Shown here in pieces: positions 1 through 38,440 of a DNA stretch of 64,000 nucleotides; position 1 is the first letter of the stretch; every line of letters starts with the position of its first letter. Both the position numbers and the translations under genes were made by a program. The stretch is from an uncultured Chloroflexia bacterium (GTDB taxonomy: Bacteria > Chloroflexota > Limnocylindria > Limnocylindrales > CSP1-4). The stretch lies in NCBI GenBank assembly GCA_963755995.1, contig CAVWLQ010000002.1, forward strand, positions 129,612 to 193,611, read 5' to 3'. The notes beneath the pieces were generated by a model, which saw only the letters and a program-made list of their open reading frames with translations, searched no databases and was not told the origin of the DNA.

Positions 1-1
1 A

Positions 2-76
2 TCGCGGTGCATCGAGGCAGCACTGGGACTTGTCAAGGCCGGGTTCGAGGCGGCACGATCGGCGCCACACGCTGAC
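2..76 (+). CDS. 3' end (about 24 codons) of an upstream gene running off the window edge
   Basis: Frame is open from the window start to TGA at 74-76, directly followed by the RBS-like GAGGGA and GTG of the next gene. Confidence 0.2.
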
Positions 77-88
77 GAGGGATCCACC

Positions 89-478
89 GTGGCCTCTGTC
101 CTGATCCGCGACCGCACCGGCGCCGGGCGGCCCGTCTCGTCGTTCACGATCCCGGACCTGCCGGATCGGATCACCATCCGCGAGCTGATCCGGATCCGCG
201 TCCGCGACGAGGTGGCGCGTCACAACCTGCACCCGACCGAGCCGTTCCACGGGCTGGTCGCCCCCACCGAGGTCGAGGTCGCCCTCAACGGCCCGCGTCG
301 GGAGCCGAAATGGGTGGATTGGGAGGCGCAGGCGGCGGTCGCCGTCAAGGCATTCGAGCGCAACGGCTTCTTCATCCTCGTCGATCAACGCCAGGCGGTG
401 TCGCTCGACGACGAAGTCGACCTGACCGCCGCCGCGGACGTCACCTTCGTGAAGCTGGTCCCCCTGGTCGGCGGTTGA
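89..478 (+). CDS. Hypothetical 129-aa protein ending in -VGG; possible beta-grasp / ubiquitin-like (MoaD/ThiS-like C-terminus)
   Basis: ORF-track GTG start at 89 is preceded by an in-frame stop at 74-76. C-terminus NGFFILVDQRQAVSLDDEVDLTAAADVTFVKLVPLVGG resembles MoaD/ThiS tails that end in GG. Its stop overlaps the next gene start (GTTGA). Confidence 0.55.
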   Translation: MASVLIRDRTGAGRPVSSFTIPDLPDRITIRELIRIRVRDEVARHNLHPTEPFHGLVAPTEVEVALNGPRREPKWVDWEAQAAVAVKAFERNGFFILVDQRQAVSLDDEVDLTAAADVTFVKLVPLVGG

Positions 479-2994
479 GGGACCTTCCGAACCTCGTCCG
501 CGCCGCCATCGCCTCGGCGAGCGGCGACCCCGTGTCGAAGCATCGTGCGCGAGCCGAGCCGTACCTGAGCACGCTCCCCGGCCAGCCGCAGGGGGGTGGC
601 TCGTCGTTCGTCATCGGCCCAGGTGATCACTGGCTGTTCACCGTCAAGAAGCAGCCCTGGTACCGGGAGTTCATGGACGCGCCCGACGCAGACCGCGTTT
701 CCCTCGGGATCGCCCTGCTCGACGGGATGAACGCCCGGGACCTCGACCAGTTCAGCGCATTCGCTGCCCCGACGGTGCTCTCCGGATTGGCTCGTCGGGT
801 TCCCGGGCACGACGAGGACGACCGCCACCTCGTCCTCGGTTTGGCGAAGCGCATCGTCGATCGCGACCGGTGGCACCAGGTCGAGAGCGTCATGTACGCG
901 GCGGCCGTCCTCGAGCGCGCCGCATCGCTCGGCGATCGGATCGACGTCCACGAGGACGAGATCCGCGAGATCCTCGACACGCTCTCCGTCCGCGGCTCGA
1001 TCGCGGCCAGCGACGAAGGTCGGATCCGGTCGCGGCTCCTGCGGCTCATCGGGCAGACGACCGCGATGTCCCGGCTCATCGATCGCGGCGATACGTGGGG
1101 CGTCGACCTCCTGGCGTACCTCGAGAGCGCGCCGGACGCGTCCGTGCTCGAGCCGCTCCTGCTCCATCTCGCGGAGGCGACGTCCGTGTCGCCGACGCAG
1201 CGCTGGAAGGCGCGCACGAAGGAGCTGCTGTCGGCCGGGCACGCCGAGGGCCTCATCCGGCACATGGTCGACGCGTCGTTCGACGCCCGATCCCTGCAGC
1301 GTCGGGCCCTCGACGCGTCACCGTTCCAGCCGGCCAACGCGAGCCTCGTCCGCGGCGCCTACTGGGCTGCCGCCGTGGGCCGGTGGGAGTGGGTCGCGGA
1401 GACGCTCGGGAGGGCCGGTCTGCACTGGGCCTTGTCGGGTCGCAACGACAACTACGCGCGCGACCAGCGGCTGGCGAACACGACCGTCGCCCTCCTGGCC
1501 GACCTCGGCACGCCGGAAACGCTCGTCGCCCTCGGGCGGATCCAGGCCAAGGTCCGGAACCGGAACGTCGCGAAGTCCGTGGCCGTGGCGCTCGATCGCG
1601 CGGCCATGGCCGCGGGGATGACCGCGTCGGAGCTGCTCGAGCTCGCGGTGCCGCGCATGAACCTCGACGACGAGGGGCGCCGCGAGATCGTGGTCGGCCC
1701 GGGCATCGCGCTGCTCGCCGTCGGGCCGGGTGGCGACGCCACGCTCGAGTGGAGCGTGGGTGGCCGCGTCTCGGCAGCCGTGCCCAAGGCGGTGCTCGAC
1801 GCTGACAAGACGGGGGTCACGGCCGCGAAGACGGAGCTCAAGGAGCTGCGCAAGGCGCTGTCGGTCGAGCGCGGCCGCCTCGAGGACCTGCTGGTCGAGG
1901 AGCGCACCTGGGCCTACCCGGACTGGGTGGAGCGCTATCGACGCCACCCGCTGACCGCTGCGGTCGCGGCACACCTCATCTGGCGCTTCCAGGTCGGCGA
2001 GCGGTGGCTTGCCGGGATCACGGATGGGGATGGGGTGACCAGCGTGGATGGATCGCCGATCGAGCTCGGGCCGTTGACCCGTGTCGCCGTCTGGCATCCG
2101 ATCCACGCGACCCCCGAGGAGATCAGGGCGTGGCGGACGTTCCTGCTCGAGCGCGGGGTGCGGCAGCCGTTCAAGCAGGCGTTCCGCGAGGTCTACCTGC
2201 TCACCCCGGCCGAGGAGGCGACCGAGGTCTACTCGAACCGGTTCGCCGGGCATGTCCTCGACTACCCGGTCGCTCGCGCGCTGATGGGGGCGCGGCGTTG
2301 GGGGACCAACTTCCTCGGGCCGTTCGACGGCGGGTACGAGGGCATCGCCAAGCGCGAGTTCCGAAGCGTTGGCGTCCGGGCCGAGTTCTACCACGATGCG
2401 ATCGAGGGAGCCGACGACGACCTGGGCGCCGTCGCGCACTGCACGACGGACCAGGTTCGCTTCGTCCGGCTCGGACGCGACGGTGACGTCCTGCCCCTGC
2501 GCGAGGTCCCGCCCGTGATCTTCTCGGAGGCGATGCGCGACGTCGACCTCTTCGTCGGGGTCGGCTCGATCGCGGCCGACGTGAACTGGCAGGATGCCGG
2601 GCGTGACCGGAACGCGCGGTTCGACGAGTACTGGGGACGCACGGCGTTCGGCGAGCTCACGGCCTCGGCCGAGAGCCGGCGGGAGGTCCTCGCCTGGATG
2701 CTTCCGCAGCTCGCGATCGCCGACCGGCTGACGCTCGAGGATCGCTACCTGCGGGTCCGGGGCGATCGGCGAACCTACCGGATCCACCTCGGATCCGCGA
2801 ACATCCTCATGGAGCCGAACGACGAGTACCTGTGCATCGTCCCGGGTCGAGGGCCGGTCTCGGCGGGCGCGACCCGGATCCTCCTGCCGTTCGACGACGA
2901 CCACCGCCTCTCGGTGATCCTCTCGAAGGCGATGCTGCTGGCCAACGACCACGCGATCACCGACCCGTCGATCGTCCGCCAGATCGATCGCTGA
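475..2994 (+). CDS. DUF4132 domain-containing protein (MolR-like C-terminal domain); start uncertain (TTG 475 or ATG near 673)
   Basis: One 2.5-kb uninterrupted frame. C-terminal motifs WRFQVGERW, FKQAFREVY and EYWGRTAFGEL are typical of DUF4132. TTG at 475 overlaps the upstream TGA (translational coupling). Confidence 0.7.
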   Translation: MRDLPNLVRAAIASASGDPVSKHRARAEPYLSTLPGQPQGGGSSFVIGPGDHWLFTVKKQPWYREFMDAPDADRVSLGIALLDGMNARDLDQFSAFAAPTVLSGLARRVPGHDEDDRHLVLGLAKRIVDRDRWHQVESVMYAAAVLERAASLGDRIDVHEDEIREILDTLSVRGSIAASDEGRIRSRLLRLIGQTTAMSRLIDRGDTWGVDLLAYLESAPDASVLEPLLLHLAEATSVSPTQRWKARTKELLSAGHAEGLIRHMVDASFDARSLQRRALDASPFQPANASLVRGAYWAAAVGRWEWVAETLGRAGLHWALSGRNDNYARDQRLANTTVALLADLGTPETLVALGRIQAKVRNRNVAKSVAVALDRAAMAAGMTASELLELAVPRMNLDDEGRREIVVGPGIALLAVGPGGDATLEWSVGGRVSAAVPKAVLDADKTGVTAAKTELKELRKALSVERGRLEDLLVEERTWAYPDWVERYRRHPLTAAVAAHLIWRFQVGERWLAGITDGDGVTSVDGSPIELGPLTRVAVWHPIHATPEEIRAWRTFLLERGVRQPFKQAFREVYLLTPAEEATEVYSNRFAGHVLDYPVARALMGARRWGTNFLGPFDGGYEGIAKREFRSVGVRAEFYHDAIEGADDDLGAVAHCTTDQVRFVRLGRDGDVLPLREVPPVIFSEAMRDVDLFVGVGSIAADVNWQDAGRDRNARFDEYWGRTAFGELTASAESRREVLAWMLPQLAIADRLTLEDRYLRVRGDRRTYRIHLGSANILMEPNDEYLCIVPGRGPVSAGATRILLPFDDDHRLSVILSKAMLLANDHAITDPSIVRQIDR

Positions 2995-3018
2995 CCGACG
3001 GGCCCGCCGAGCCGGTTC

Positions 3019-3942
3019 CTAGGACCTGGTGCGCAGCCCGGTGACCCAGTACTCGGTCGTCGTGATGCCGAACCGGGCGTTGACCACCCACAGCCGTCCG
3101 GCCTGGAGCGCACCGGTGGTCGGCACGCTGAGGTCAGCCGAGGTGAGCTCGGTGCGTGGGCGCGCGGACGTCAGCCGGAGGCCCAGTCGGAAGACTTCCA
3201 CCGCGCCGACGCCGGCCTCGTTGGCGTTGCGCACGACGAACAGGGTGCTGCCGCGGAGCTCCAGGCCGTCGCCGTTGGCGACGCTGACGCCGCCGGTCGA
3301 GATCGGCGTCGCGACCCCGGTCGCCTTGCTGACCCGGAACAGGCCGCCCGTGAACGAGTCGACGACGATGAGCCAGCCGCGCGCGGCGACGATGCCGTTC
3401 GCGTTGAACTGGCCGGCCTCGAACTCGATCCCGGTCAGCGGCAGCGTCGTGACGAGGCTTGCGTCGGGCAGCCGGCCGTGGCGCCCGAGCGGGATGACGT
3501 CCAGCCACGCGTTGTTCGAATCGGTCACGTACACGGCGTCGTGGGTCACGACGAGATCGTTGAGGAACCCGGCCGGCGAGAACGTGTACTGGCGCAGGAG
3601 CGTCCCGCGCGTCGCGTCATAGACGCGGACGGTCCCGGTCGGGCCACCGGCGACCCAGAGGCGATTCGCGCCGGCCTCGTACTCGACGCCCGCTGCCGCA
3701 CCGCCCCAGGCCGGCACGAGCACACCGCCGCGGCCGGTGCGGACGTCGCCCTTCCACACGCCACCGCCGGCCAGCGAGCCGACGTAGATCGTGTTGCCGC
3801 GTCCGGCCGTGATGCCCTCCGGCATCCAGCCGGACGGGAGGTCGATCCGCGACGGGAACGGCGACGATGCGGCGACGGGCGCGGCGAACGCGCCAAGGGC
3901 AAGGACAAGGGCGATCATGGCGGTCAGTGGTCGACGGAGCAT
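3019..3942 (-). CDS. Secreted beta-propeller protein (SMP-30/gluconolactonase/LRE- or NHL-like) with signal peptide
   Basis: Start at the internal Met MLRRPLTAMIALVLALGAFAAPVAASS (cleavable signal). Gly/Thr-rich repeated beta-strand motifs follow. Convergent with the DUF4132 gene. Confidence 0.6.
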   Translation of the reverse strand: MLRRPLTAMIALVLALGAFAAPVAASSPFPSRIDLPSGWMPEGITAGRGNTIYVGSLAGGGVWKGDVRTGRGGVLVPAWGGAAAGVEYEAGANRLWVAGGPTGTVRVYDATRGTLLRQYTFSPAGFLNDLVVTHDAVYVTDSNNAWLDVIPLGRHGRLPDASLVTTLPLTGIEFEAGQFNANGIVAARGWLIVVDSFTGGLFRVSKATGVATPISTGGVSVANGDGLELRGSTLFVVRNANEAGVGAVEVFRLGLRLTSARPRTELTSADLSVPTTGALQAGRLWVVNARFGITTTEYWVTGLRTRS

Positions 3943-4096
3943 CTCGAACCTCCCGTGACGCTGGCGGGGCGGCGACGGGCTGGTCGCCACCGGACGCGGT
4001 CATGGCGCTCTGGGTGCGCGTGTCTCCATGACCCTACGCCTGTAGGCGAGATGTGGATGTCGGCGAGCTCGGTGACAGCGGCGGCTTGCCCGCGAT

Positions 4097-4122
4097 TGAA
4101 CGTTTTCCGCGACCATCCCGTC
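4097..4122 (+). promoter_or_regulatory. ECF-type promoter (-35 GAAC, 17-nt spacer, -10 CGTC) about 9 nt upstream of the sigma gene ATG; near-leaderless
   Basis: attGAACgttttccgcgaccatccCGTCggtacgtcATG. Matches the GGAAC-N16/17-CGT architecture of autoregulated ECF promoters. Confidence 0.35.
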
Positions 4123-4130
4123 GGTACGTC

Positions 4131-4730
4131 ATGATCGAACACCCTACAGAGGTCATCCGGCCGGTGAGGCAGACGGCAGACCGCCCTGACGTGGCGCGCG
4201 CGGAGCTCTTCGCCCGCCTCGTCGATCGAGCAGCGCTCGACAAGGCCTATCGCTACGCCACCCTGGTCCTCGGCTCCCGATCCGACGCGGAGGATGCCAC
4301 CCACGACGCGGCCCTCAGCGCCTGGCGAAAGTTCGGCGACCTGCGCGACACCGCGAAGTTCGATGCCTGGTTCGGGAAGATCCTGGTCAACGCCTGTCGC
4401 GACCAGCTCCGGACCCGCGGTCGCACGCCGCTCAGTCTCGACGCCGAGCCCTTCTCAGCGACGGACTATGGCTACGCCCCGGCCCCGCGTGCGACCACCG
4501 ATCCGACCGACACCGTCGTCGATCGCGACGCGCTCGACCTCGCTCTGCGGACCCTCAGCCCGGACCAGCGCGAGGTCGTCGTGCTCCGTTACTTCTTCGA
4601 CCTGACCATCGAGGGGATCGCGGCACGGACCGGGGCTCGCGAGGGCACCGTCAAATCGCGACTCCACCACGCCCTGCGATACCTCAGGTCGGCGATCGAC
4701 GCGGCCAATGAAGGGAGCATCGACCGATGA
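4131..4730 (+). CDS. ECF (sigma-70 family) RNA polymerase sigma factor
   Basis: Region 2 (FDAWFGKILVNACRDQLR) and region 4 (LSPDQREVVVLRYFFDLTIEGIAARTGAREGTVKSRLHHALRYLR) motifs. Its stop overlaps the next ATG (ATGA). Confidence 0.8.
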   Translation: MIEHPTEVIRPVRQTADRPDVARAELFARLVDRAALDKAYRYATLVLGSRSDAEDATHDAALSAWRKFGDLRDTAKFDAWFGKILVNACRDQLRTRGRTPLSLDAEPFSATDYGYAPAPRATTDPTDTVVDRDALDLALRTLSPDQREVVVLRYFFDLTIEGIAARTGAREGTVKSRLHHALRYLRSAIDAANEGSIDR

Positions 4731-6139
4731 CGGACGACACTGCGTTCGAGCGAGACCTGCGCGCAGCGCTCGAGCAGCTCGGTCGCGAACCTGCGCCCGA
4801 GCGCCTCGTCTCCCGGGTCGCCGAGATCCCGAGCCGGCAGCCGTCGGCCCAGCGGCTCGAGGCGCGCTCATCCGGCCTGTCCCCCCGGTCGATCGGGTCG
4901 GCTCTCGGCCTCCTCGTCGCGGTCCTGGCCATCGCGGTCGTCGCGCTGATCCTGCGACCGACGGGTCCCGGGCCGGTCATCGTCGGCGGCTCCCCGTCGC
5001 TGGCGGTGGTCCCGTCCCCGAGCGCCTCGGAGGAGCCCTCGGTCGAGCCGTCGGCCAGCCCGTCGACCGAGCCCTCGGTGCAGGCGTCGGCCACGGCCAC
5101 CCCGGCCCCGACGGCGACCCCGAAGCCGGCGCAGCCCGTGCCGGCGGGGTTCGCACCGGTCTCGGCGACCTTCGTCTCGTCCAAGAACGGCTGGGTGCTC
5201 GGCGGCGTCGCGTGCGACACCGGCCTCTGTCCCGCCATCGCCCACACGACCGACGGCGGCGTGACCTGGGCGGCGATCCCGGCTCCGAAGACCACGATCG
5301 GCCGGAGCCCGGTCGACGAGACCGGCACCGGCATCTCTGCCCTCCGGTTCGCGAACGCCAAGGACGGCTGGGCGTACGGCCCGGAGCTGTGGACCACCCA
5401 TGACGGTGGCGCGACCTGGGCGAAGTCGTCGATCGCCGGCCTGCCCAAGGATTCGCCGGTCCGTGCCCTCGAGGCTGCCCGCGGGACGGTCCACGCGGTC
5501 GTCTATGACGGAGCGCAGGACTTCCGGATCGCGTCCGGCAAGGTCGCGACCAACGCGTGGACGCTGGCCTCCGTCCGTGTCCCGGTCGGTGCCGGGCCGG
5601 CCCCGCGCCCGCAGCTCGTCCTGTCCGGGACCGGCGGCTGGGTGCTGGAGAACGATCGGACCGTCGTCGCCGGGGCGCAGCTCCGCAACGGCTCCTGGGT
5701 GACCTGGAAGCCCGTCTGCCTGGACGTCGTCGGACCGGCGGTCCTGGCCGCTTCGAGCGCCAGCAACCTCGTCGCTGCGTGCGACGTCGGCGCCCTCGGG
5801 GATGCGAAGGGCGACCACCTGTTTGCCTCGCACGATGGCGGCGCGAGCTTCGCCGAGGTCGGTCCGGCCACCCCGCTCGACGCGGCCGCGGTCATCGCCA
5901 CGCCGGGTGTCGCCACGATCGTCATCGGTGGCACCGTCGCCGCCGGGTCCGAGCTCTTCACCTCGACCGACGGCGGGCAGACGTGGAGCGGCGTCCTGCC
6001 GGCCGCGGCCGCGACGTTCGCCGACCTCGGCTTCACGACCCCCACCCAGGGGATCGTGATCCAGACCGAGCAGGGCGGAACGAGCCGGATGCTGATGAGC
6101 CACGACGCCGGGAAGACCTGGACGCCGATCGCGTTCTGA
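4727..6139 (+). CDS. Anti-sigma factor: N-terminal cytoplasmic segment, one TM helix, Ser/Pro-rich linker, extracytoplasmic BNR/Asp-box (Ycf48-like) beta-propeller
   Basis: TM helix LGLLVAVLAIAVVALIL. Five S/T-x-D-G-G-x-T-W repeats: TDGGVTW, HDGGATW, HDGGASF, TDGGQTW, HDAGKTW. Translationally coupled to the sigma gene. Confidence 0.75.
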   Translation: MTDDTAFERDLRAALEQLGREPAPERLVSRVAEIPSRQPSAQRLEARSSGLSPRSIGSALGLLVAVLAIAVVALILRPTGPGPVIVGGSPSLAVVPSPSASEEPSVEPSASPSTEPSVQASATATPAPTATPKPAQPVPAGFAPVSATFVSSKNGWVLGGVACDTGLCPAIAHTTDGGVTWAAIPAPKTTIGRSPVDETGTGISALRFANAKDGWAYGPELWTTHDGGATWAKSSIAGLPKDSPVRALEAARGTVHAVVYDGAQDFRIASGKVATNAWTLASVRVPVGAGPAPRPQLVLSGTGGWVLENDRTVVAGAQLRNGSWVTWKPVCLDVVGPAVLAASSASNLVAACDVGALGDAKGDHLFASHDGGASFAEVGPATPLDAAAVIATPGVATIVIGGTVAAGSELFTSTDGGQTWSGVLPAAAATFADLGFTTPTQGIVIQTEQGGTSRMLMSHDAGKTWTPIAF

Positions 6140-9952: not shown

Positions 9953-10258
9953 GCGCAGGAGTCTTACATCTGGCACTTCACAGGCCCTTACGGGCCGCCA
10001 GTCGTGCCCATGGCCGCGGCCCAAGCGTGATCCAGAACGGATCCCGCCCCGCCGGGCTCGATGTGGAGGTCGCAGGCGCCGAGATAAGACTGCCGGGAAT
10101 ATCGGCCGACGGACCGGTGTCCGCGTGCACGACGGACCGGTGTCCGCTAGCACGATGGAACGGTGTCCGCAGGCACGACGCAGCCTCGCGCCGGCCGCGG
10201 CCTGAATCGAAGCGGCCGGCCCTCGCGGGCCGGCCGTCGTGCGTGTGCCGGGGAACGG

Positions 10259-38325: not shown

Positions 38326-38440
38326 AAGAGCTCTTATCAAGAGTGGCAGAGGGACCGGCCCGATGAAGCCACGACAACCTACCGACGAATCGGCAAGGTG
38401 CCAAGTCCGGGCAGGTCCTCCTGCACGATAAGGGAACCTC
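38326..38440 (+). promoter_or_regulatory. SAM-I (S-box) riboswitch aptamer in the 5' leader of the thrC-like gene
   Basis: Near-consensus S-box sequence: CUCUUAUCAAGAG-UGGCAGAGGGACCGGCCCGAUGAAGCCACGACAACC...AGGUGCCAAGUCCGGGCAGG...GAUAAGGG (P1 closing). Downstream CUCCC/GGAGA pairing can sequester the SD at about 38508. Confidence 0.8.

Follow-up and report, generated by a model that had tools for sequence, protein, structure and literature searches.

Prokaryotic proteins that combine a β-grasp fold with a C-terminal Gly-Gly (GG) are the ancestors of ubiquitin signalling, and each new family of them with a distinct partner has so far brought new chemistry: sulfur transfer, sampylation, and conjugation in the Bil and CBASS systems. 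Among the known families, a conserved terminal GG is found in sulfur carriers and in conjugated ubiquitin-like proteins (Ubls). Here we describe a gene pair in a 64,000-nucleotide (64-kb) stretch of DNA, hereafter the window, from an uncultured Chloroflexia bacterium (contig CAVWLQ010000002.1). In this pair, a small gene on the forward strand (89–478) encodes a GG-terminated protein of 129 amino acids (aa) and overlaps a gene (475–2994) for a large protein with the domains DUF4132 and DUF7737. We suggest that the pair may be a bacterial stress module of ubiquitin-like or sulfur-carrier type that has so far gone unrecognised. Its nearest relative is an operon of Deinococcus, and in mechanism it comes closest to the sulfur-carrier pairs and the Urm1, SAMP and TtuB proteins; what is new here is a GG-terminated β-grasp family with a new and obligatory partner and a DNA-damage context.

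The sulfur-carrier pairs MoaD–MoaE, ThiS–ThiG and CysO–CysM resemble the window pair in that the gene of a small β-grasp protein, whose flexible tail ends in GG, adjoins that of a single partner and is translationally coupled to it. Their E1-type activating enzyme may be encoded elsewhere, as is moeB relative to moaDE in Escherichia coli, and the tail motif of the window protein resembles that of MoaD. The differences are that the window small protein has no significant profile similarity to ThiS/MoaD and carries a 45-residue insert, that its partner, 839 aa long and made up of a solenoid plus DUFs, is no relative of MoaE, and that a thiocarboxylate is, for the window pair, a proposal. Urm1, the archaeal SAMPs and Thermus TtuB likewise combine a MoaD-like fold with a GG end and a link to oxidative stress, and their E1 is shared and supplied in trans. 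However, no sequence relationship to them is detectable, and the window family, known here from its genes, lacks any JAMM or E1 context. The Bil, Bub and CBASS Cap2/Cap3 systems also place a bacterial β-grasp protein with a C-terminal glycine in a compact operon, but they are defined by E1, E2 and JAB/peptidase genes beside the Ubl, none of which is found in the loci of the pair: clustering of neighbours gives DUF4132 alone, and both PADLOC and a tblastn search with MoeB were negative. The window pair is not a Bil, Bub or CBASS-type operon.

In Deinococcus radiodurans, the drA0165–drA0166 operon has a radiation/desiccation response motif (RDRM) at −83 and is strongly de-repressed on depletion of DdrO, and its DUF4132 product DRA0166 is induced by mitomycin C in an IrrE-dependent manner (PMC8533742). 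DR_A0165, described as "SEP068184", is up-regulated after gamma irradiation and H2O2; its knockout shows greater H2O2 resistance, it pulled down the thioredoxin DR_A0164, its predicted structure resembles MOCS2A, SAMP1 and Urm1-type proteins, which are among the published matches, and it was held to be restricted to Deinococcus (PMC9650054). Judged by sequence, the window pair is a short-form homologue of this operon, because both genes are homologous and adjacent. The hidden Markov model (HMM) of the small family gives 37.8 bits to the SEP068184 fragment, which ends ...LRLTALAGG in the supplement of PMC9650054, and 38.8 bits to the full 134-aa DR_A0165, with the alignment running through the terminal GG. 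DR_A0166 (1,626 aa, DUF5724+DUF4132+DUF7737) starts 3 nucleotides (nt) after DR_A0165, and its C-terminus aligns to residues 403–837 of the window protein (E 7e-31). The two systems share this adjacency, and the Deinococcus operon is inducible by DNA damage and oxidative stress in experiments; they differ in that DR_A0166 has a DUF5724 N-terminus instead of the 390-residue solenoid of the window protein, in that the small proteins share ~31% identity over the C-terminal half only, and in that no RDRM is seen in the 88-nt leader of the window pair. Upstream of the operon, both D. radiodurans and D. ficus have RDRM-like palindromes. The D. radiodurans pair is flanked by two YeeE/YedE genes and a thioredoxin gene on one side and by modA on the other.

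A preliminary description of the window, made from its letters, had called the pairing of a β-grasp protein with a DUF4132 partner undescribed. This has to be narrowed, as the operon itself is published (PMC8533742) and DR_A0165 had already been predicted to be MoaD/SAMP1-like (PMC9650054), whereas the GG terminus, the wide distribution and the link with DUF4132 had gone unremarked. Our search of one literature library for the large protein and its domains surfaced only the Deinococcus papers, with no mention of DUF5724 or DUF7737 and no link between DUF4132 and a Ubl. The published "species-specific small peptide" of Deinococcus can thus be recast as a member of a widespread ubiquitin-like family.

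The small gene starts with GTG, 6 nt after a Shine-Dalgarno-like GAGGGA (77–82, forward strand), and its product ends ...VTFVKLVPLVGG (last residues FVKLVPLVGG), followed by TGA at 476–478. The GG end noted for the 129-aa open reading frame (ORF) is therefore confirmed: VPLVGG is directly followed by the stop, with GGC GGT TGA occupying 470–478. The TTG start of the DUF4132 gene (475–477) overlaps both the GGT codon of G129 and the TGA, an arrangement indicating translational coupling, and since homologues of the large protein begin M-DLP... exactly at this TTG, the TTGA overlap is a real gene junction. The overlap with a DUF4132 gene (assigned by Pfam) was thus correctly foreseen; the frame from TTG 475 to 2994 encodes 839 aa.

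AlphaFold2, run on the family alignment, models the small protein with a mean predicted local distance difference test (pLDDT) score of 75, rising to 82–91 in the core blocks. The predicted layout is β1 (residues 2–10), β2 (15–24), α1 (30–47), a disordered insert (50–73), α2 (78–90), β3–β5 (94–122) and a floppy tail (125–129) with pLDDT below 50. The mixed β-β-α-β-β-β sheet gripping one helix, which marks the β-grasp superfamily, and the flexible GG tail of its carrier/modifier subset are both found in this model, and the top Foldseek matches in the Protein Data Bank (PDB) are all β-grasp proteins, including EapH1, staphylococcal superantigen-like domains, SUMO, ubiquitin, ISG15, NEDD8 and human MOCS2A (MoaD). 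The model thus supports a β-grasp fold with a flexible GG tail, as had been anticipated from the letters.

Pfam and NCBIfam contain nothing that matches the small family at E ≤ 0.1, and neither protein of the pair has a match in PADLOC or NCBIfam. It is nevertheless large: a word-indexed search found 741 relatives, and an exhaustive profile search of 1.84 billion cluster representatives (50%-identity clusters) yielded 2,251 at E ≤ 1e-3, of which 1,174 reach E ≤ 1e-10, so that ~2,250 clusters spread across phyla are without a database family. The terminal GG is no accident of this one sequence, being present in 120 of the 120 best-listed close homologues. Among the best 150 cluster representatives, 143 end in GG and one in AG, while the six others are probably truncated or frameshifted predictions, as their match stops before the end of the protein. 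GG followed by the stop is seen also in small genes of Bacteroidota plasmids, Novosphingobium and Deinococcus, and it is kept across phyla at ~39% identity. Mean column identity is 60% over 35 diverse members, which share the motif NGFF..V..RQ...L......V.F.KL.PLVGG and an invariant, arginine-rich helix α1 (R31, R35, R37, R39, R44). This near-absolute conservation of the terminal GG suggests chemistry at the carboxylate.

A member of canonical Ubl size occurs in Actinoplanes sp. OR16 (locus L098, 3726–4001): it has 91 aa, lacks the insert between α1 and α2 and ends LAGG, and its gene overlaps the start of a DUF4132 gene. Two further candidates were rejected. A 969-aa protein (P0186), considered as a natural DUF4132–Ubl fusion, is a frameshift artefact with an out-of-frame R/G/P-rich middle, and E. 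coli YehK, encoded after yehI, ends QEIE and scores −2 bits against the family HMM.

The large protein is modelled with pLDDT 81 as an all-helical N-terminal part followed by an α/β region (residues 400–839). Residues 1–390 (475–1644; this and the following segments lie on the forward strand) form a predicted ARM/HEAT-like α-solenoid that matches β-catenin, importin-α, AP2 and CAND1 in Foldseek and has no Pfam match. DUF4132 (PF13569) spans residues 430–609 (1762–2301; 147 bits, E 7e-43), with the superfamily-invariant motifs W-H-P and RQPFKQxFRExYxLTxxE. It is followed by a conserved linker outside Pfam (residues 610–731; 2302–2667) whose invariant columns include TDQ, the FSEAMRDVDLFV motif and D702/W705/D707, and by DUF7737 (PF24879; residues 732–837; 2668–2985; 130.7 bits, E 2.5e-38), with Y768-x-IHLGS, C787, LPF and SK..LA.D..I.D. 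Both domain scores exceed the cut-off of 27, and Pfam searches with separate pieces of the protein gave no further domains.

In an alignment of relatives as distant as Deinococcus and Bacteroides, the invariant residues of the large protein are H541-P542, Q564-P-x-K567-Q-x-x-R571-E572-x-Y574, T577, E580, S587, R589, R607 and W609, followed by R688, D691, D702, R735, Y768, H771-x-G-S774, P805-F806, K818, D825, D830 and Q836. The most conserved polar residues of the module are H541, K567, R571, E572, Y574, E580, R589, R688, D691, D702, Y768, H771, S774 and K818, a constellation of the kind expected of a binding or catalytic pocket. A non-significant match of the C-terminal module to the N-terminal part of Cas1 in the sequence and profile searches of the PDB (E 0.3) was discarded.

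The genomic context of the pair was read from 80 genome loci of relatives and some others, with ±10 kb of flank each and all ORFs clustered all-against-all. DUF4132/DUF7737 is the sole conserved neighbour family (73 of 83 loci); the next commonest families reach at most 16 loci and are ordinary neighbours specific to a lineage, for example a monooxygenase, an aldo-keto reductase, an ABC-F protein or a PadR regulator. The two genes occur together in no fewer than six phyla (Actinomycetota, Chloroflexota, Planctomycetota, Bacteroidota, Pseudomonadota and Deinococcota). The small gene comes first, about −7 to +16 nt from the DUF4132 gene, in Chloroflexota, Geodermatophilaceae, Streptosporangium, Nonomuraea, Planctomycetia and Bacteroidota, and the order is reversed in Actinomadura, Spirillospora and Streptomyces, where the DUF4132 stop overlaps the start of the small gene. 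Many loci hold two tandem DUF4132 paralogues, and one small gene often serves both. That small-family genes, with their GG ends, would prove syntenic with DUF4132 across genomes had been put forward as a check on the preliminary description, and this is what we see.

The link is reciprocal and specific to DUF7737-bearing proteins. Both DUF4132+DUF7737 proteins that were looked up independently (2/2) have a small gene directly upstream, whereas none stands beside the DUF4132-only protein of Glycomyces or E. coli YehI; every partner of the small protein has DUF7737, which is lacking in the DUF4132-only proteins that we examined. E. coli YehF, YehH (MolR) and YehI and the Glycomyces proteins share the DUF4132 core with the window protein (YehI matches its residues 338–622, E 1e-13) but lack DUF7737 and the small GG protein. 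In both organisms (Glycomyces rhizosphaerae, locus L100, 1–11324; E. coli, locus L091, 4475–18945), DUF4132-only tandem paralogues are followed by genes for a MoxR-type AAA protein, DUF5682/YehM and a VWA protein, with a SWIM gene in E. coli, and these loci look like a separate DUF4132 system. The small family is thus tied to DUF4132, which ranks among the larger domains of unknown function, and the old question of molR and DUF4132 gains a concrete handle in the form of a small partner, its tail and an inducing condition.

The flanks of the pair are ordinary housekeeping genes, stably syntenic within Actinomadura, Nonomuraea and Streptosporangium, which suggests vertical inheritance. The Planctomycetia pair lies behind an operon of the xanthine-dehydrogenase family, and FdhD is encoded nearby; in Bacteroidota, Novosphingobium and Deinococcus, copies of the pair occur on large plasmids or chromids. 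On plasmid pFA1 of Fulvitalea axinellae (locus L088, 1938–11140), a long-form pair on the reverse strand (a 157-aa small gene and a 1,704-aa DUF5724 protein) and a short-form pair on the forward strand (a small gene and an 869-aa DUF4132 protein) stand back to back, diverging from one intergenic region. On one metagenomic contig (locus L099, 2839–3489), the gene directly preceding the pair, in the same orientation, encodes a 3-methyladenine DNA glycosylase (Adenine_glyco).

Regulatory elements upstream of the relatives point to DNA damage. The consensus for PafBC-controlled promoters is tGTCgg(N10)tA(N3)T (PMC8635444). In Streptosporangiales and related actinomycetes, the element T(C/T)TGTCG(G/T)-N7-TG-N-TA-NNN-AT precedes the small gene's start codon by ~60 nt and fits this consensus except for the last conserved T, which is shifted by one base. 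In the reversed-order loci of Streptomyces and Actinomadura, TGTC(A/G)G-N7-CTG-N-(C/A)A-NNN-T, a full match, stands just before the first DUF4132 gene. A scan with the pattern GTC[AGT][GTC]N7TGNNANNN[TA] found it within 120 nt upstream in 38 of 45 forward or orphan loci and at the operon start in 13 of 25 reversed-order loci, counts that are not independent because the loci are related, against a background of 45 matches in 2.7 Mb elsewhere. Spacer sequences vary between these elements, and the motif positions are fixed. In E. coli, the LexA-box-like CTGGATAAAATTACAG (CTG-N10-CAG) lies 27 nt before yehF/molR, in agreement with the statement that molR belongs to the LexA regulon (PMC8533742). 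DUF4132 genes in three phyla are thus preceded by control elements of three unrelated DNA-damage systems, that of LexA in E. coli, that of DdrO in Deinococcus and one of PafBC type in actinomycetes.

Five Streptosporangium-type loci (L020, L043, L046, L058 and L062, at ~9961–9990) carry, downstream of the PafBC-like promoter and ahead of the small gene's start codon, the conserved palindrome ATCAC-A-GTGAT within CATCACAGTGATTCCGATGAYTTGTGGAG, which could be a second operator or a hairpin in the 5' untranslated region. Elsewhere in the relatives' loci, some small hypothetical genes unrelated to the pair are preceded by further canonical PafBC-type motifs (TGTCGGTG-N8-TAnnnT), among others in L002 (4567–4588, reverse strand), L042 (2703–2724), L082 (828–849, reverse strand) and L063 (12565–12586), and these genes may be further members of a damage regulon.

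We propose, with a probability of about 0.5, that the pair is a two-subunit module with a chemically activated GG carrier or modifier. The small subunit would be a MoaD/Urm1/SAMP-like β-grasp protein with an unstructured tail and a free Gly-Gly. It would form a complex with the large protein, its tail inserting into the conserved DUF4132/DUF7737 module as that of MoaD does into MoaE, that of ThiS into ThiG and that of CysO into CysM. The terminal carboxylate would then be activated as an acyl-adenylate and passed on to a thiocarboxylate or isopeptide, either by an E1 of the MoeB/MoeZ/ThiF type from another locus or by the DUF4132 module. The ARM/HEAT solenoid would act as a platform for substrates or partners, and the module would be switched on in the response to DNA damage and oxidative stress.

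Several results weigh against this proposal. At the level of the small protein, the Foldseek matches have probabilities of 0.75–1.0 but weak E values (1e-3 to 4e-2) and TM scores of 0.3–0.55, and the model contains a 24-residue disordered insert. No significant sequence similarity to ThiS/MoaD (PF02597) or to any Pfam Ubl family was detected, and hhalign aligns the family profile to E. coli MoaD over its last 23 columns alone (LVSFDHP--LTDGDEVAFFP--PVTGG), with E 0.028 and a probability of 1.8%. Judged by these comparisons, the family does not belong to ThiS/MoaD. The parallel drawn in the preliminary description with the tails of MoaD, ThiS and CysO is therefore real but weak, and of the carrier or modifier that it had envisaged, the predicted fold and the GG end hold up, while the role itself is one that we infer. 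At the level of the large protein, neither Foldseek against the PDB and BFVD nor sequence and profile searches against the PDB matched the DUF4132/DUF7737 region to a known catalytic fold, the whole model matching only helical-repeat proteins, and the C-terminal module has no similarity to MoaE.

The context also counts against the proposal in part. In about 10 of 83 loci, no DUF4132 gene adjoins the small gene. No MoeB/ThiF-type E1 was found, by tblastn with MoeB of E. coli, in ~1.7 Mb of flanks (~94 loci) or in the window, and there is no E2, JAMM or rhodanese gene among the annotated neighbours of homologous loci; the idea that E1-like or JAMM partners might lie just outside the window did not hold in those loci. 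In the portion of the published DR_A0165 co-immunoprecipitation tables that was available to us, neither DR_A0166 nor an E1 is listed among the partners. However, the absence of a linked E1 does not contradict activation, because E. coli moaD and moaE are adjacent at 819 kb and moeB lies ~45 kb away at 864 kb, and because shared E1s, such as TtuC in Thermus, UbaA in archaea and MoeZ in actinomycetes, serve several carriers. Finally, the 88 nt upstream of the small gene in the window contain no LexA, Cheo-box, RDRM or PafBC motif, and a scan of window positions 1–3300 for consensus promoters and terminators found nothing. Damage control of the window's own pair is therefore an extrapolation from relatives, as those 88 nt are all the upstream sequence available; the identical protein recurs on two contigs of 548 nt and 1,274 nt, which add no usable sequence upstream.

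The alternative that survives best is that the small protein serves as a regulatory or adaptor subunit, bound non-covalently to the DUF4132/DUF7737 protein, and that its tail is only a plug or latch, with no adenylation, thiocarboxylation or conjugation. The chief evidence against activation, which speaks for this alternative, comes from three small proteins of Bacteroidota with long DUF5724–DUF4132–DUF7737 partners (L093, 6839–7258; L094, 5833–6258; L088, 7153–7626 on the reverse strand), which end in LSG-RLW, LAG-SIW and LAG-STY, respectively. In place of the GG, these have G-[S/R]-x-[W/Y], a 2–3 residue extension that is conserved yet different and always has an aromatic last residue. Such an ending fits a non-covalent docking tail, or a precursor in need of trimming, and it looks more like the former than like a disposable propeptide. 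The same alternative would account for the lack of a linked E1, E2 or protease, for the flips in gene order and the frequent sharing of one small gene between two tandem paralogues, and for the conservation of helix α1, which equals that of the tail and suggests a large protein-protein or nucleic-acid interface. What it leaves unexplained is a near-absolute GG with nothing after it, held across phyla despite low identity, which is a signature of carboxylate chemistry, and a tail that is predicted to be disordered, as in ubiquitin and MoaD. Because the aromatic tails of Bacteroidota weigh against activation, we hold the activated module to its probability of about one half and regard the non-covalent subunit as unlikely, though less so than the other alternatives.

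A bolder form of the activated module is an E1-independent Ubl system, in which DUF4132–DUF7737 would be a new class of enzyme that activates, processes or ligates its cognate GG C-terminus, with the solenoid picking targets, under PafBC, DdrO or LexA control in at least six phyla. We consider this improbable.

Slightly less probable still is a specialised role in sulfur transfer or related to the molybdenum cofactor, in which the pair would be a paralogue of the MoaD–MoaE scheme, with a thiocarboxylated small protein whose sulfur the "MolR-like" DUF4132 protein would spend on some small molecule or cofactor. In E. coli, molR, a DUF4132 gene, owes its name to a molybdate-utilisation phenotype (cited in PMC8533742), and the YeeE/YedE, thioredoxin and modA neighbours in D. 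radiodurans, the pull-down of thioredoxin by DR_A0165 and the xanthine-dehydrogenase and FdhD context in Planctomycetia would all suit such a role. On the other hand, expression of Deinococcus moeA and moeB is unchanged with the operon (PMC8533742). Moreover, the 80 other loci do not share these contexts, the C-terminal module is dissimilar to MoaE, and the regulatory signals indicate DNA damage rather than the supply of molybdenum or sulfur.

The least probable alternative, anti-phage defence by a Bil/Bub/CBASS-Cap2-like conjugation of the Ubl to phage or host proteins, can draw on the plasmid- and chromid-borne copies, on the frequent tandem duplication of paralogues, on the PycTM, SIR2-like and HIRAN-like neighbours in Modestobacter and on the fact that WYL/PafBC-type and DNA-damage control is common in defence islands, but it is very unlikely given that PADLOC has no match for either protein, that the E1, E2 and JAB genes which define the known systems are missing, that the housekeeping flanks and their stable synteny suggest vertical inheritance, and that the large-protein model has no viral fold match in BFVD.

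In that Modestobacter locus (L002, 2481–8495), the PycTM, SIR2_2 (weak) and HIRAN (weak) genes lie just upstream of the pair, an arrangement not seen in the other loci, and the region may be a defence island. In the window, the pair is followed by a convergent gene on the reverse strand for a 323-aa secreted NHL-like protein (3019–3990). Beyond it, on the forward strand, lies a gene for a sigma factor of the extracytoplasmic function type (4053–4730; Sigma70_r2/r4), whose stop overlaps the start of a gene (4727–6139) for a 470-aa BNR/Asp-box (Sortilin/Ycf48-like) repeat protein with a hydrophobic segment, and the two may be a sigma/anti-sigma pair. The window has no tRNA genes, and its sole Rfam match is an S-adenosylmethionine (SAM; S-box) riboswitch at 38331–38434 on the forward strand, which scores 74.8 bits against a gathering score of 44.4.

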